From NCBI RefSeq assembly GCF_000020385.1, contig NC_010814.1:2910001-2942000 (forward strand): a stretch of 32,000 bases of DNA, written 5' to 3'. A model generated the notes under the pieces. The model had not been told where the DNA came from. It ran no database searches and saw only the letters and a list, made by a program, of their open reading frames with translations. The position numbers and the translations under genes are program-made. This document shows positions 9,827 to 32,000 of the stretch, one piece after another. How positions within the stretch are numbered: the stretch's first letter is position 1; each line of letters opens with the position of its first letter. This DNA is from Trichlorobacter lovleyi SZ (lineage in GTDB: Bacteria > Desulfobacterota > Desulfuromonadia > Geobacterales > Pseudopelobacteraceae).

Positions 9827-10207
9827 ATGAACGACAACAACCACTCGCGGGAAGACCACTTTATTGCAGCACTCAGCAACGAATTTATCGTGCAGGGCGG
9901 CTCGGCAAGCCTGGTTAACCCGGCACTTGCCGTTAAAGAGCATGTCGTAGATTCCGCTGCCGGAAATAACGCCGGTCAGCCATATAAGCGCCTGCAGATT
10001 CCCGACTCAGACGAACCGATCATGACAACAGGCCGCATGAACGGTATTTTCAAGCTCCTGCCCTATGAGGCGATCATCTACCTGGGCCCCACCCCGCCAT
10101 TGGGTGACTACTTCAGCTTTACCCCGTTTCTCTGGGATCGCCAATACGGCAAAAAAGTCAAAAAAGGCGACTGGATCTTTGCCGCCCTGGGAGACCCGCT
10201 TAATTGA
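9827..10207 (+). CDS. Hypothetical protein, possibly a 5' gene fragment
   Basis: 126-aa ORF with AAAGGA 7 nt upstream. I recognise no family. The C-terminal half (LLPYEAIIYLGPTPPLGDYFSFTPFLWDR...GDWIFAALGDPLN) looks like the start of a folded domain that stops abruptly just before a repeat element. Confidence 0.4.
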   Translation: MNDNNHSREDHFIAALSNEFIVQGGSASLVNPALAVKEHVVDSAAGNNAGQPYKRLQIPDSDEPIMTTGRMNGIFKLLPYEAIIYLGPTPPLGDYFSFTPFLWDRQYGKKVKKGDWIFAALGDPLN

Positions 10208-17030: not shown

Positions 17031-17420
17031 ATGCACATGAACAACCGGTTACTCAGATGGCTGCTGATCATTATTGGCCTTGTCTCCACGGGACTGGGAA
17101 TCATCGGTATCTTTGTGCCGTTGCTGCCAACCACTCCTTTCCTGCTGCTGGCAGCAGCCTGTTTTGCCCGCAGTTCCGAGCGGTTTCATAGCTGGCTGGT
17201 GAACCACAACCATCTGGGCCCGATGATCAGAGGCTATCTGGATGGCTCAGGCATACCGCTCAGGGCCAAGTACACCGCCATCACCCTGGTCTGGCTGACC
17301 CTGCCCCCCTCAGCCCTGCTGCTGGTTCCGCCGGTCTGGGCCAAGCTGTTGCTGATCCTGTTGGCCATCAGCATCACCTGGTATCTGCTGCGCCTGCCAA
17401 CGCTCCAGGAGGAGCCATGA
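17031..17420 (+). CDS. YbaN-family (DUF454) inner-membrane protein
   Basis: 129 aa. The motif GIIGIFVPLLPTTPFLLLAAACFARSSERFHSWL is characteristic of DUF454/YbaN. ATG 17037 is an alternative start. Confidence 0.8.
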   Translation: MHMNNRLLRWLLIIIGLVSTGLGIIGIFVPLLPTTPFLLLAAACFARSSERFHSWLVNHNHLGPMIRGYLDGSGIPLRAKYTAITLVWLTLPPSALLLVPPVWAKLLLILLAISITWYLLRLPTLQEEP

Positions 17421-17629
17421 ACAAAAAGCTGCTTAAATTCCTGATTCTGATCGGTGGCGGAGCACTTGCCGGAGGGATCTTCGGCTGGATGTCCCGTTGC
17501 GCCGGAGGCGGCAGCTGAGCCATGCTGAGCAACCCCTGGTCAGGGGCTTTGTATGGAGCAGCAGCAGGCTTATTTCTTGCCCTGGTACCGGGCGAAACCG
17601 ACACGAAGAAACCTGAGGACACGCCATGA
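17417..17629 (+). CDS. Candidate small two-helix membrane selenoprotein (in-frame TGA at 17516-17518 read as Sec)
   Basis: ORFs 17417-17518 and 17522-17629 are in the same frame, separated by TGA GCC. The joined 70-aa product has Cys-x5-Sec between two hydrophobic helices, and a SECIS-like hairpin follows the TGA. ATGA overlaps occur at both ends, with ybaN and with rluB. Confidence 0.55.
17527..17549 (+). promoter_or_regulatory. Candidate bacterial SECIS hairpin
   Basis: The lower stem pairs G27-U49, A28-U48 and G29-C47, with bulge CAA (17530-17532). The upper stem is CCCCU (17533-17537) paired with AGGGG (17542-17546). The apical loop GGUC (17538-17541) starts 19 nt after the UGA. Confidence 0.5.
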
Positions 17630-25477: not shown

Positions 25478-26597
25478 ATGTACCGCGAAGAAGTTGCACT
25501 GCTTGACGACCTGACCAGCCGAATCTCCTCACTTCGGAGGTCTCTTTGACCTGGATAGCAAACGGGAGGAGCTGCAGGAGCTTGACGCCCGTATCGCTGC
25601 CCCCGGTTTCTGGGACGACCCCTCCGGTTCTCAGGATATCCTGAAAAAACGTACGGTTATCGAAAAACTGCTCCAGTCGTGGGACTCACTCAACCGCCAG
25701 GCCGATGATGTGCGGGTGATGATTGAGCTGGGTGAAGAGTCCTCGGATGAGGACACCCTGACTGAAGTCCACCAGATGAATGAACGCCTGAAGAGCGGCG
25801 TTGAAGAGGCCGAATTTCAGCGGATGCTGTCCGGCACCCATGACCGCAACGGCTGTTTTGTGTCGGTCAACTCCGGCGCAGGCGGCACCGAGTCCCAGGA
25901 TTGGGCCAACATGCTGCTGCGGATGCTGTTGCGCTACTGCGAGAAAAAGGGCTGGAAGGCGGTGATTACCGACTATCAGGACGGCGAAGAAGCCGGCCTC
26001 AAATCAGCCACCTTCAGCGTCTCCGGTGAATTTGCCTATGGCCACCTCAAGGCCGAGGCAGGGGTCCATCGCCTGGTGCGACTTTCCCCTTTTGACAGCA
26101 ACAACCGCCGCCACACCTCCTTTGCCTCGGTCTTCGTCTTTCCCGAAATCGAGGAGGAGGATATCGATATCCGCATTGCAGACTCTGACCTGCGGGTGGA
26201 CACCTACCGTTCCAGCGGTTCAGGCGGCCAGCATGTCAACACCACCGATTCGGCGGTGCGGATCACCCACCTCCCCACCAATATCGTGGTGGCCTGCCAG
26301 TCGGAACGGAGCCAGATCCTGAACCGTGCCACTGCCATGAAGGTGTTGCGGGCCAAGCTGTACGAAAAAGAGATGGAAGAGCGGAATGCCAAGGCCTCCG
26401 AGATTGCCGGTGAAAAGCGGGAGATCGGCTGGGGCAGCCAGATCCGCTCCTATGTGCTGCATCCCTATAAAATGGTGAAAGATCTGCGCACCGGCGTGGA
26501 ATCAGGCAACCCGGATTCCGTTCTGGACGGGGCCCTGGATGACTTTGTGATTCCTTTCCTGATGGGTGTCCGGCGTGATGTCAAGGACGAGGATTAG
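25478..26597 (+). CDS. prfB: Peptide chain release factor 2, expressed via programmed +1 frameshift at 25544-25550
   Basis: Frame 0 (25478-25546) gives MYREEVALLDDLTSRISSLRRSL, then the in-frame TGA. The +1 frame from 25548 continues DLDSKREELQELD... through the SPF and GGQ motifs to TAG 26597. The site reads GGAGG-TCT-CTT-TGA-C. Confidence 0.95.
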
Positions 26598-28922: not shown

Positions 28923-29387
28923 ATGCGTTACTGGCTCTTTAAATCGGAACCGGGCTGTTTTTCCTTCCAGGACCTGCAAGCCCGTCCCAACGCAACTGAG
29001 CAGTGGGACGGGGTACGCAACTTTCAGGCCCGTAACTTCCTGCGGGACGAGATCAAACCCGGCGACCGGGTGCTGTTCTACCACAGCTCCATCCCGGAAC
29101 CGGCCGTGATCGGTCTCTGCAGCGTGGTACGAGAGGGCTATCCTGACCACACTGCCCTTGACCCGGCGGCCGACCACTTTGATCCCAAGGCCACACCTGA
29201 CAAACCGATCTGGTACATGGTTGATGTCCGTGCGGATCAGGCGCTGCCTTCAGAAGTCCCTCTGGCCGTAATCCGTGAACACCCGCTCCTGACCGGCATG
29301 CCGCTGGTCAACCGCAGCCGTCTTTCGATCCAGCCACTCACCAAAGAGCAGTTTGAGACCATTCTGCAGTTGGGAGGTCTTGCATGA
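28923..29387 (+). CDS. EVE-domain (PUA-like) protein
   Basis: ATG 28923 lies 8 nt after GGAGGA and gives MRYWLFKSEPGCFSFQDL...WDGVRNFQARNFLRDEIKPGDRVLFYHS, the typical EVE/THYN1-like N-terminus. The extension from 28842 runs through the repeat and was rejected. Confidence 0.85.
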   Translation: MRYWLFKSEPGCFSFQDLQARPNATEQWDGVRNFQARNFLRDEIKPGDRVLFYHSSIPEPAVIGLCSVVREGYPDHTALDPAADHFDPKATPDKPIWYMVDVRADQALPSEVPLAVIREHPLLTGMPLVNRSRLSIQPLTKEQFETILQLGGLA

Positions 29388-30370
29388 CCATGCGTTACCT
29401 ATTGCTCTGCCTGGCACTGTTTGCCGTCACCCCGTTGGCTCAGGCCGCCCCGCGGGAATTGACCCTTTTCCCCGATGCCAGCCTGATTGAGGTTGAGGTG
29501 GCGGCAAAAAAGGGGAGTGCAGAGTTTTCATTCCCGCTGCCGATCAGAGAGGGCACCCTGCGGGTAAAACCGCTGGACAGCAGCAGCACGATCGGGCGCG
29601 TGGAACTGTTTCCCTTCAGGACGCCTGACAGGCTGCAAAAGGAACTGGACAATCTGACTGAACAGAAAAACCGCCTTGAAGACCGGCTGAAGGCCCTTGA
29701 CACCCGCGAAGACATCTTTGCCGCTGCAGCAAAATCACAAAGTTCCAAGGCCCCCCGCAAGACCAAGAGCAATCCCGACCCGCTGACATCGGTGCGCCAG
29801 GGTACCGACTTTGCCATTGCCCAGCTGGAAGCGGTCTTTACGGCCCGCCGCCGTACCGAACAGGAGCTGAAAAAGGTTGTGACGCGACTGGCGGCTCTGC
29901 AGAAAACGGCCCTTGGCGGGCCAACATTGCGCGTATCGGTATCACCGGCAACAAGCCGCATCAGAATCGCCGCCATACTGAAAGAGGGCGGCTGGACTCC
30001 ACACTACGAGATCCGCATCCAGGGGACTGGCAATGCTCAGGTGACACTGGCAGCAGACAACCGCGCGTCGCTCCCTGATGGCTATACAGTTTCGGCCACC
30101 GCAGCAGCACTGAGCGCAGGCCAACCACGACAGACCTATCCATTCTCCGCCAGCGGCGCGCCCCGCCTGTCGACATGGCAGTTGCTGGTGGAACAGGAAC
30201 AGGTCACAGCCGGACCGCTGCCCGCTTTTTCCCTTACCATAAAAAACACGACCACCCTGCCACTGCCAGCCGGCAAGGCTGCGCTCTACTATGCCGGCGA
30301 ATACCTTGGCACCACCGACTTTTCCGCTGTGGCAGCCGGAGCCTCCGCCACACTGACAGGCCCCAAATAA
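29384..30370 (+). CDS. Secreted protein, DUF4139/MuiA-like (tentative)
   Basis: 328 aa, with an ATGA overlap with the EVE gene. The signal peptide is MTMRYLLLCLALFAVTPLAQA, there is a central coiled coil (RLQKELDNLTEQKNRLEDRLKAL), and GGWTPHYEIRI resembles the W-x-P-x-Y-D/E-hydrophobic-R motif of DUF4139 proteins. The protein is shorter than typical family members. Confidence 0.5.
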   Translation: MTMRYLLLCLALFAVTPLAQAAPRELTLFPDASLIEVEVAAKKGSAEFSFPLPIREGTLRVKPLDSSSTIGRVELFPFRTPDRLQKELDNLTEQKNRLEDRLKALDTREDIFAAAAKSQSSKAPRKTKSNPDPLTSVRQGTDFAIAQLEAVFTARRRTEQELKKVVTRLAALQKTALGGPTLRVSVSPATSRIRIAAILKEGGWTPHYEIRIQGTGNAQVTLAADNRASLPDGYTVSATAAALSAGQPRQTYPFSASGAPRLSTWQLLVEQEQVTAGPLPAFSLTIKNTTTLPLPAGKAALYYAGEYLGTTDFSAVAAGASATLTGPK

Positions 30371-31463: not shown

Positions 31464-31555
31464 AACAGTACAATCTCCTTTAGTGATGGTTTTGATTGAG
31501 AATGTATAACACGGCGTCAATCAAGGAAAAAGCGGATTTTTTTTAAGAATCATTT

Positions 31556-31584
31556 TTGACTTTTCAATTACTTTCGAGTACAGT
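31556..31584 (+). promoter_or_regulatory. Candidate sigma-70 promoter for the CheY-like gene
   Basis: TTGACT (31556-31561), a 17-nt spacer, then TACAGT (31579-31584). A CCTGCC-attc-GGCAGG hairpin (31599-31614) lies in the putative 5' UTR. Confidence 0.35.
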
Positions 31585-31647
31585 TCCGGCATACAAAACC
31601 TGCCATTCGGCAGGGCCACCAAAGCCACACTGGGAGGGAAGGTGTCT

Positions 31648-32000
31648 ATGAAGAAGGTGCTTGTCGTTGATGACAGCCTCTCCGTAACCCGCCAGCTGGA
31701 AAAGATCATAAATGATTCCGGCGATTTTGTCTGTGTCGGCCATGCAAAAAACGGGGCCGAGGCAATCAAGATGAACCATACGGAAGACCCTGACATTATC
31801 TGCATGGATATGAACATGCCCGGTATGGATGGTCTGACCGCCCTGCGCAGTCTGGTAATGCTGGACAAGGCAGTGCAGGTGGTAATGGTCACCTCCCTGG
31901 GGGGTGTCGGTGATAAGTTTACCGAGGCCATCAAACTTGGGGCAAAAAATGTTATTTCCAAGCCGTTTGAGACGGAAAACGTGCTGCGTATCCTGCGGGC
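31648..32000 (+). CDS. CheY-like response regulator receiver protein (3' end outside window)
   Basis: ATG 31648 follows GGGAGGGAAGG. The sequence is MKKVLVVDDSLSVTRQLEKII...IICMDMNMPGMDGLTAL...VVMVTSLG...SKPF. The frame is open to the window edge, so it is absent from the ORF track. Confidence 0.8.
   Translation, partial: MKKVLVVDDSLSVTRQLEKIINDSGDFVCVGHAKNGAEAIKMNHTEDPDIICMDMNMPGMDGLTALRSLVMLDKAVQVVMVTSLGGVGDKFTEAIKLGAKNVISKPFETENVLRILR

Follow-up and report, generated by a model that had tools for sequence, protein, structure and literature searches.

Species of Geobacter carry the selenocysteine (Sec) trait and have 8-13 selenoproteins (PMC1794560, PMC12013277, PMC4561486 supplement). For instance, SelD and seven further selenoproteins occur in each of G. 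metallireducens, G. sulfurreducens and G. uraniumreducens (PMC1794560), 13 selenoproteins are listed for G. sulfurreducens PL (PMC12013277), and G. lovleyi shares the conserved ext cluster, which encodes the ExtKL selenocytochrome (PMC5877670). One catalogued selenoprotein family is named after G. lovleyi. Here we describe a further candidate from Trichlorobacter lovleyi SZ. It lies on contig NC_010814.1, within a stretch of 32,000 nucleotides (nt) at positions 2,910,001 to 2,942,000; this whole stretch is called the window, and positions are given in its coordinates. The gene has been annotated as two short hypothetical genes separated by a stop codon. That stop codon, a UGA, very probably encodes Sec in a single 70-residue membrane protein of the family DUF6132.

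The consensus for the bacterial Sec insertion sequence (bSECIS) has an apical loop of 3-9 nt with G in the first two loop positions, an upper stem of 4-16 base pairs (bp), a distance from UGA to loop of 16-37 nt, and a minimum free energy (MFE) of -7.5 kcal/mol or lower (PMC13188914). Sec forms have been catalogued for several sulfur-handling proteins, namely rhodanese (forms 1-5), DsrE-like proteins and the YeeE/YedE thiosulfate transporter, in which the motif is GUxSG (PMC13188914).

In the mechanism proposed here, codon 34, a UGA, would be decoded as Sec. SelB with its Sec-tRNA(Sec) would be recruited by an mRNA hairpin that starts at the UGA and has its GGUC loop 19 nt downstream. The inserted Sec would take the place of the invariant second Cys of DUF6132 and, together with Cys28, would form a C-x5-U pair in a short loop between two helices.

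The two open reading frames (ORFs), of 33 and 35 amino acids (aa), lie at 17417-17518 and 17522-17629 on the (+) strand. They share one frame and are divided only by TGA (17516-17518) and GCC. The coordinates and sequence in the initial annotation both hold, as does the 70-aa product of reading through the TGA, MNKKLLKFLILIGGGALAGGIFGWMSRCAGGGS-U-AMLSNPWSGALYGAAAGLFLALVPGETDTKKPEDTP, in which Cys28 and U34 stand six positions apart. In GenBank the first piece is Glov_2726 (ACD96439.1) and the second Glov_2727 (ACD96440.1), each a 'hypothetical protein'. In metagenomes, gene callers report the 33-aa piece alone and assign about 107 nt before rluB to no gene.

When U is replaced by Cys, the read-through product matches the Pfam family DUF6132 (PF19628) at 35.1 bits (E = 1e-8; gathering cut-off 23.2). 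The match covers residues 2-57 (profile positions 2-56 of 60) and runs straight across the UGA. The hmmscan score depends on the residue placed at position 34, falling from 35.1 bits with Cys to 30.7 with Ala, 30.4 with X, 29.7 with Gly and 29.1 with Trp, so that even X exceeds the cut-off. Changing Cys28 to Ala lowers the score by 4.4 bits. Since both residues score lower without Cys, the profile expects Cys at each. The orthologue at a related locus, L004, reaches 37.1 bits.

A word-index search with the window protein alone gave no match, the same kind of search with five Sec forms returned only another N-terminal half (P0001), and tblastn against plasmids gave no match. The family was reached through a designed Bacteroidota-like probe (41 bits on DUF6132), which was used solely as a seed. 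The seeded search gave 1,477 proteins, of which the 120 listed all belong to PF19628 and measure 63-86 aa. A hybrid HMMER profile (alignment A6), in which three Cys homologues were combined with P0001 and both halves of the window protein, found 1,295 clusters of Cys forms (50% identity) at E <= 1e-3 and 356 at E <= 1e-10. Full-length homologues with Cys therefore exist in number, as the Sec reading requires.

The column under the UGA is Cys in every alignment made. In two alignments that include Sec forms, the count is 50/50 and 16/16 sequences. All 120 listed proteins have C-x4-C, within G-C-x-S-G-x-C-[AP]-I-T-S-x-P-x-N-S-T-L-Y-G; the family motif given in the initial annotation is confirmed in the form G-C-x-S-G-x-C-[AP]-I-T-S-x-P, with the UGA falling on the second Cys. 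Among the best 150 representatives, the spacing is C-x4-C in 135 and C-x3-C in nine, and one of the 150 (P0288) lacks the first Cys and has the second. The closest Cys forms (P0269, P0195, P0175 and P0248) are 45-53% identical to the window protein over the aligned region and have S-N-P-W in common with it. Around its own first Cys the window protein reads R-C-A-G-G-G-S-U, outside the G-C-x-S-G context and with C-x5 spacing; at the second position, Sec would be chemically equivalent to Cys.

Several features are shared with the Cys forms of DUF6132: the match to the whole domain, a similar length (70 aa, against about 60-100 aa for the family), two hydrophobic glycine-rich helices, Pro40, a Y-G pair, S-N-P-W with the closest members, and a second redox position on the same column. 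The window protein differs in having the proposed Sec for the second Cys, C-x5-U rather than C-x4-C or C-x3-C, Met for a nearly invariant Ile that follows the motif, an acidic rather than basic C-terminal tail, and a place in a housekeeping operon (rluB-asnS) rather than a sulfur cluster. The members of DUF6132 come mostly from Bacteroidota-type genomes.

Related loci were collected by pattern scans, which gave 13: four genome contigs, five metagenome contigs and four near-identical contigs. The four genome contigs, one genome per species, are from Trichlorobacter thiogenes, a Trichlorobacter metagenome-assembled genome, Geobacter sp. UBA6802 and Geobacter sp. UBA2189. A fourteenth locus, L014, was found through the N-half protein P0001.

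Eight distinct alleles are represented, with protein identity down to 63%. Codon 34 is TGA in all eight and never TAA or TAG, and no allele has a frameshift or another stop, so the open frame and TGA anticipated for orthologous loci are present throughout. Between the window and L004, the rates of nonsynonymous and synonymous substitution (dN and dS) are 0.28 and 1.16 over codons 1-33; over codons 35-70, dN is 0.24 and dS is saturated. Because dN lies far below a saturated dS past the TGA, the downstream half must be translated in frame under purifying selection. The codon for Ala35, between the UGA and the next ATG, shows a synonymous change from GCC to GCA. Cys28 is invariant, with its codon alternating synonymously between TGC and TGT.

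One metagenomic allele (L010, 2335-2547) has another C-terminal tail (…TDTKTLGKNHD) and a shifted rluB junction. Its UGA, hairpin and both helices are intact, and the acidic C-terminal tail is therefore the least constrained part of the protein.

The UGA is followed by a hairpin of SECIS type. The MFE fold is a stem with the UGA at its base and CCCCU/AGGGG (or CCCU/AGGG) at its apex, with loop GGUC and a 3-nt bulge in the 5' arm. The minihelix at 17527-17549, which the initial annotation had described with its loop 19 nt after the UGA, is recovered as part of this longer stem, which includes the UGA itself. The same apical hairpin forms in 4/4 alleles folded in a common 46-nt context. Every value falls within the published bSECIS ranges: the loop GGUC has 4 nt, the upper stem has 4-5 bp and is extended past the bulge, and the spacing is 19 nt. 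The minihelix alone has an MFE of -7.8 kcal/mol, and sequences of 40 and 46 nt reach -12.9 and -19.6 kcal/mol.

The hairpin core is also conserved beyond what the protein requires. Nucleotides 110-131 of the gene (window 17526-17547, UGAGCAACCCCUGGUCAGGGGC) are identical in all alleles. Among degenerate codons whose amino acid is invariant, the third base varies in 0/5 within the core and in 18/21 outside it (Fisher p = 8.5e-4). Since the core is invariant at synonymous sites amid a saturated background, it is under RNA-level constraint on top of coding constraint. When pairing is compared across alleles, the share of cells that pair is 88.5% in register and drops to 26-60% once the register is slid. 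Wherever the TGA is kept, the core of the hairpin is kept with it.

The closest known element is the SECIS of E. coli fdhF. Of 5,426 complete E. coli genomes, 5,419 contain its 46-nt sequence at 100% identity. Both hairpins begin at the UGA, have GGUC as the apical loop, and carry a bulge in the 5' arm beneath a short upper stem rich in G+C. The spacing from UGA to loop is nearly the same, 19 nt here and 18 nt in fdhF; counted from the U of UGA, the loop occupies nt 23-26 in the window and nt 22-25 in fdhF. The initial annotation had described the fdhF loop as one nucleotide closer to the UGA and a base of the 5' arm as bulged; folding bears both out, the bulged base being a U. The elements differ in their stem sequences, which are unrelated, and in the bulge, which has 3 nt (CAA or AAC) here and is a single U in fdhF. 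Conservation of TGA and frame, the Cys homologues and the conserved hairpin thus all speak for the Sec reading that had been put forward.

An AlphaFold2 model of the Cys homologue P0062, made from a 60-sequence alignment, has a mean predicted local distance difference test score (pLDDT) of 86.8. It consists of two helices, at residues 4-28 and 41-57, and a 12-residue loop between them that carries both Cys. The window protein has two hydrophobic segments that match these helices. A Foldseek search of the PDB with the homologue model returned only non-significant, generic helical hairpins. Both tails of the Cys forms are basic (mean charges +2.4 and +1.9), and because of this, by the positive-inside rule, we infer that their Cys loop would lie on the membrane's outer face. 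The Sec form has a charge of +3 on its N-terminal tail and -2 on its C-terminal tail.

Evidence for a function can be sought in the neighbours of the Cys forms. In 5/5 distinct loci the Cys-form gene directly adjoins a gene for a Lactamase_B+Rhodanese fusion, and the stop codon of one often overlaps the start codon of the other. Such fusions are the CstB/Blh type of persulfide dioxygenase-sulfurtransferase (PMC9163753, PMC5823870, PMC12934615). Other neighbours are single-domain rhodaneses, thioredoxin, TauE, YeeE/YedE-type Sulf_transp, DsrE, peroxiredoxin and SoxA/TsdA, as well as a YgaP-like transmembrane (TM) protein and a Crp-type regulator. This link between DUF6132 and sulfur-trafficking clusters appears not to have been described before.

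The clusters themselves lie at L015 3359-6396, L016 313-10219, L017/L018 1665-5399, L019/L020 937-5623 and L021 520-8216. They comprise a Crp-type regulator, YgaP-like TM, Lactamase_B+Rhodanese, DUF6132, two rhodaneses, thioredoxin and a protein of about 93 aa that has no annotation. Some add TauE, a split Sulf_transp/DUF6691, DsrE, peroxiredoxin, SoxA/TsdA and a SoxB-like gene.

Because the Cys forms sit in clusters of persulfide dioxygenase, rhodanese, thioredoxin, TauE and YeeE genes, the family most likely acts at the membrane in the handling of persulfide, thiosulfate or sulfite. For the window protein itself, a role as a membrane Cys/Sec redox or sulfane-sulfur relay is suggested tentatively and may well prove wrong. 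In such a relay, the Cys/Sec pair would be a redox-active or sulfane-sulfur-accepting centre located at the surface of the membrane. The second Cys (here Sec) would attack a sulfane-sulfur or disulfide substrate, and the first Cys would resolve the adduct, giving an intramolecular disulfide or selenylsulfide that thioredoxin would then reduce. With Sec, the residue that attacks would be more nucleophilic. Exposure to polysulfide would follow from either of two traits, the reduction of elemental sulfur by T. lovleyi and the sulfur/sulfide cycle of T. thiogenes.

The comparison extends to the catalogued Sec forms of rhodanese, DsrE and YeeE. In these, as proposed for the window protein, Cys is replaced by Sec at the reactive Cys of sulfane-sulfur proteins, and Cys-form DUF6132 co-occurs with the same families. 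Since Sec forms of rhodanese, DsrE and YeeE/YedE are on record, a Sec form in a fourth member of this sulfur network would fit an established pattern. Several of the listed representatives fall in what we take to be the RefSeq accession range of Geobacter. The G-C-x-S-G of DUF6132 resembles the G-C-[TS]-S-G of YeeE, and the Sec here is at the second Cys, unlike that of YeeE, which lies in the motif itself. Homology to YeeE/YedE (Sulf_transp, PF04143) or to YgaP-like TM (PF11127) was considered and rejected, as hhalign gave probabilities of 2.0% and 0.5% and there was no Pfam match.

A number of observations weigh against the Sec reading or the function attached to it. No selA, selB, selC or selD was found in the window or in about 150 kb of related DNA, the rest of the genome not having been searched, and no tRNA-Sec was found in the window or in the 14 related loci. 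None of the best 150 representatives of the Cys forms has C-x5 spacing. The folding energy of the hairpin is unremarkable against shuffled sequences, with z of -1.9 to -2.0, although the genuine fdhF SECIS has only z = -1.3. The hairpin shows no covariation, its apical helix never varying in a shallow clade. It matches no Rfam family at the gathering threshold, and a permissive scan gave only a meaningless match to sX13 (E = 9.3). The lower stem is poorly conserved and is partly disrupted in L004; in E. coli the upper minihelix is sufficient, which is compatible with this disruption. As for function, the gene in Trichlorobacter lies outside any sulfur operon, in the order (ybaN or other gene)-gene-rluB-asnS, and its proposed role is carried over from distant Bacteroidota-type homologues, which are 30-50% identical. 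To the same side belongs the ATG at 17522, which is kept in 8/8 alleles at a position where the Cys forms have a nearly invariant Ile.

That ATG is central to the alternative that survives best, a split gene. Here the UGA would be a true stop, and two single-helix peptides of 33 and 35 aa, the second made by re-initiation at AUG 17522, would associate in the membrane. GenBank and all gene callers annotate the locus so, and UGA-GCC-AUG is plausible as a restart arrangement. However, the family's most conserved residue would then have been lost, yet both halves, including Cys28 and S-N-P-W, are under purifying selection. The stop is always TGA and never TAA or TAG despite saturated synonymous sites; Ala35, which would not be translated, changes synonymously; and the synonymous-site invariance of a hairpin with SECIS geometry is left unexplained. 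The initial annotation had pointed to GGAGG at 17504-17508 as a possible Shine-Dalgarno (SD) sequence for a separate second peptide. This is weakened, since these letters are simply a pair of Gly codons, with GGCGG or GGTGG in their place in 4/8 alleles, whereas the SD before the true start is kept in 6/7 loci. A split gene is distinctly unlikely on this evidence.

Alternatively, the UGA might be read through without Sec, a near-cognate tRNA inserting Trp or Cys and the hairpin acting as a generic stimulator of read-through. Both halves are clearly translated in one frame, as this would require, and no covariation proves that the hairpin is specific for SelB. On the other hand, the UGA stands exactly on the Cys column, the defining sign of a Sec/Cys pair, the hairpin fits the bSECIS consensus and the loop sequence and spacing of fdhF, and the lineage uses Sec according to the literature. 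We know of no established mechanism for programmed read-through of this kind in these bacteria, and this explanation is very unlikely. Least credible is a decaying pseudogene, in which a nonsense mutation, for which one base change from TGC or TGT to TGA would suffice, has left residual similarity downstream: it is effectively refuted by a dN/dS far below 1 after the TGA, and the same TGA is present in eight alleles with saturated synonymous sites, with no frameshifts or extra stops and with the ATGA coupling to rluB intact. The dS values also contradict an origin of these alleles from one recent clone.

The Sec reading may be extended to accommodate the internal AUG. The locus could have two selenium-dependent outputs, the full selenoprotein when Sec is supplied and, otherwise, termination followed by restart at the AUG 3 nt downstream. 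This is unlikely. If true, restart would yield two single-helix peptides and, more importantly, would stop ribosomes from leaving the mRNA, with translation continuing into the ATGA-coupled rluB (and asnS). UGA-GCC-AUG would then be a selected fail-safe that shields a housekeeping operon from inefficient Sec decoding, or that tunes the operon to selenium status.

The window protein should be distinguished from the small selenoprotein named after G. lovleyi. Both are small: that protein is about 55-60 residues long, and its hydrophobic helix precedes a Sec/Cys pair (U-x4-C). It differs in sequence (…LGITTUMRDACQVTSK…), has a single hydrophobic segment and shows no similarity to DUF6132. Neither the window nor the related loci examined encode it. 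Small membrane-anchored Sec/Cys peptides may recur in Geobacter and Trichlorobacter (cf. PMC12013277 Data S1).

Neither the PF19628 entry nor the C-x5-U motif appears in Table 1 of PMC13188914 (May 2026), which covers 119 selenoprotein families and subfamilies. The motifs of the window protein were not found in deep-Sep Data S1 and Table S1, no model of NCBIfam release 20 matches the protein, and the families described by Haft in 2022 differ from it. Literature searches on Glov_2726, Glov_2727 and DUF6132 returned nothing relevant, and no direct paper on the T. lovleyi selenoproteome was found. In all likelihood, judging from sequence, this is a new selenoprotein family that uses the standard bacterial decoding mechanism, rather than a new kind of system.

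The coordinates of the features are collected in Table 1.

Table 1. Features of the proposed selenoprotein gene and its borders, in window coordinates.
Feature	Position	Strand	Evidence
Complete gene (proposed), 70 codons + stop, two-helix membrane protein of the DUF6132 family	17417..17629	+	Frame, Pfam match, purifying selection in both halves
In-frame UGA, proposed Sec codon (residue 34)	17516..17518	+	On the invariant second Cys column of DUF6132; TGA in 8/8 alleles
Cys28 codon TGC, likely resolving partner of Sec34	17498..17500	+	Cys invariant in all alleles; codon TGC/TGT
SECIS-like stem-loop from the UGA; lower stem variable; upper minihelix 17527-17549	17516..17560	+	MFE folds
Invariant 22-nt core UGAGCAACCCCUGGUCAGGGGC: upper stem CCCCU/AGGGG and loop	17526..17547	+	Identical in 8 alleles
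Apical loop GGUC, 19 nt after the UGA	17538..17541	+	MFE folds; fdhF SECIS has the same loop
SD sequence GGAGG, 4 nt before start ATG 17417	17408..17412	+	CAGGAG(G/A) kept in 6/7 related loci examined
Internal ATG (Met36), 3 nt after the UGA; possible re-initiation codon	17522..17524	+	Kept in all Sec forms; Cys forms have Ile
ATGA overlap of selenoprotein stop and rluB start, translational coupling	17626..17629	+	Present in every related locus
Upstream membrane protein gene of the DUF454/YbaN family, ATGA overlap 17417-17420	17031..17420	+	PF04304, 139.7 bits

The gene lies among housekeeping genes. The window contains rpsB, tsf, pyrH, frr, uppS, cdsA, dxr, rseP, tsaB and sucCD, together with dnaE, accA, ybaN, rluB, asnS, ybeY, corC, lnt, prfB and a surA-like gene. 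Three sizeable ORFs, at 9827-10207 (126 aa), 29384-30370 (328 aa) and 31521-31961 on the (-) strand (146 aa), matched nothing in Pfam at E <= 1e-5.

The initial annotation had placed the gene in an operon, coupled by ATGA at both ends. Both overlaps are present, and the coupling to rluB occurs in all loci; the upstream part of this context, ybaN, is not conserved. T. thiogenes L002 lacks ybaN on the upstream side, where L004 has a sensor kinase gene instead. Only the rluB-asnS linkage is kept across the Trichlorobacter loci. Because its linkage is not conserved, ybaN was rejected as a candidate partner, and it is probably not a functional one.

Two further observations concern other parts of the window and the related loci. 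The release factor 2 gene, prfB (25503-26597; PCRF and RF-1 domains), has a classical autoregulatory +1 frameshift site at 25535-25550, with an SD-like GGAGG followed by CTT TGA C at 25544-25550. Its called length is inconsistent, at 292, 348 or 364 aa. Release factor 2 competes with SelB at UGA.

The second observation concerns four loci from near-identical strains (L005 1-3350, L006 1-3250, L007 1-3350 and L008 1-3330). These differ in a defence-like cassette upstream of the genes for DUF6794 and a response regulator. The cassette holds DUF5343 and HEPN_Swt1 in L005 and L007; L006 has an AAA_15/OLD-like TOPRIM protein together with a protein of NHL repeats, and L008 has a NACHT protein. It forms a strain-variable island that adjoins a conserved housekeeping block.

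If the UGA encodes Sec, Glov_2726 and Glov_2727 are one mis-annotated gene, and the same error is present in all related genomes and in metagenome gene calls. As long as the family is missing from catalogues, annotation pipelines will keep shortening the gene.

For DUF6132, a family of more than 1,000 clusters with no literature, the Sec form would be a first functional pointer. Because Sec/Cys pairs mark catalytic or redox-active residues, the second Cys would be the reactive centre. Taken with the operon evidence, this would place DUF6132 in persulfide and sulfane-sulfur handling at the membrane. The protein would also provide a very small, genetically tractable membrane selenoprotein in a relative of the model organism G. 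sulfurreducens.

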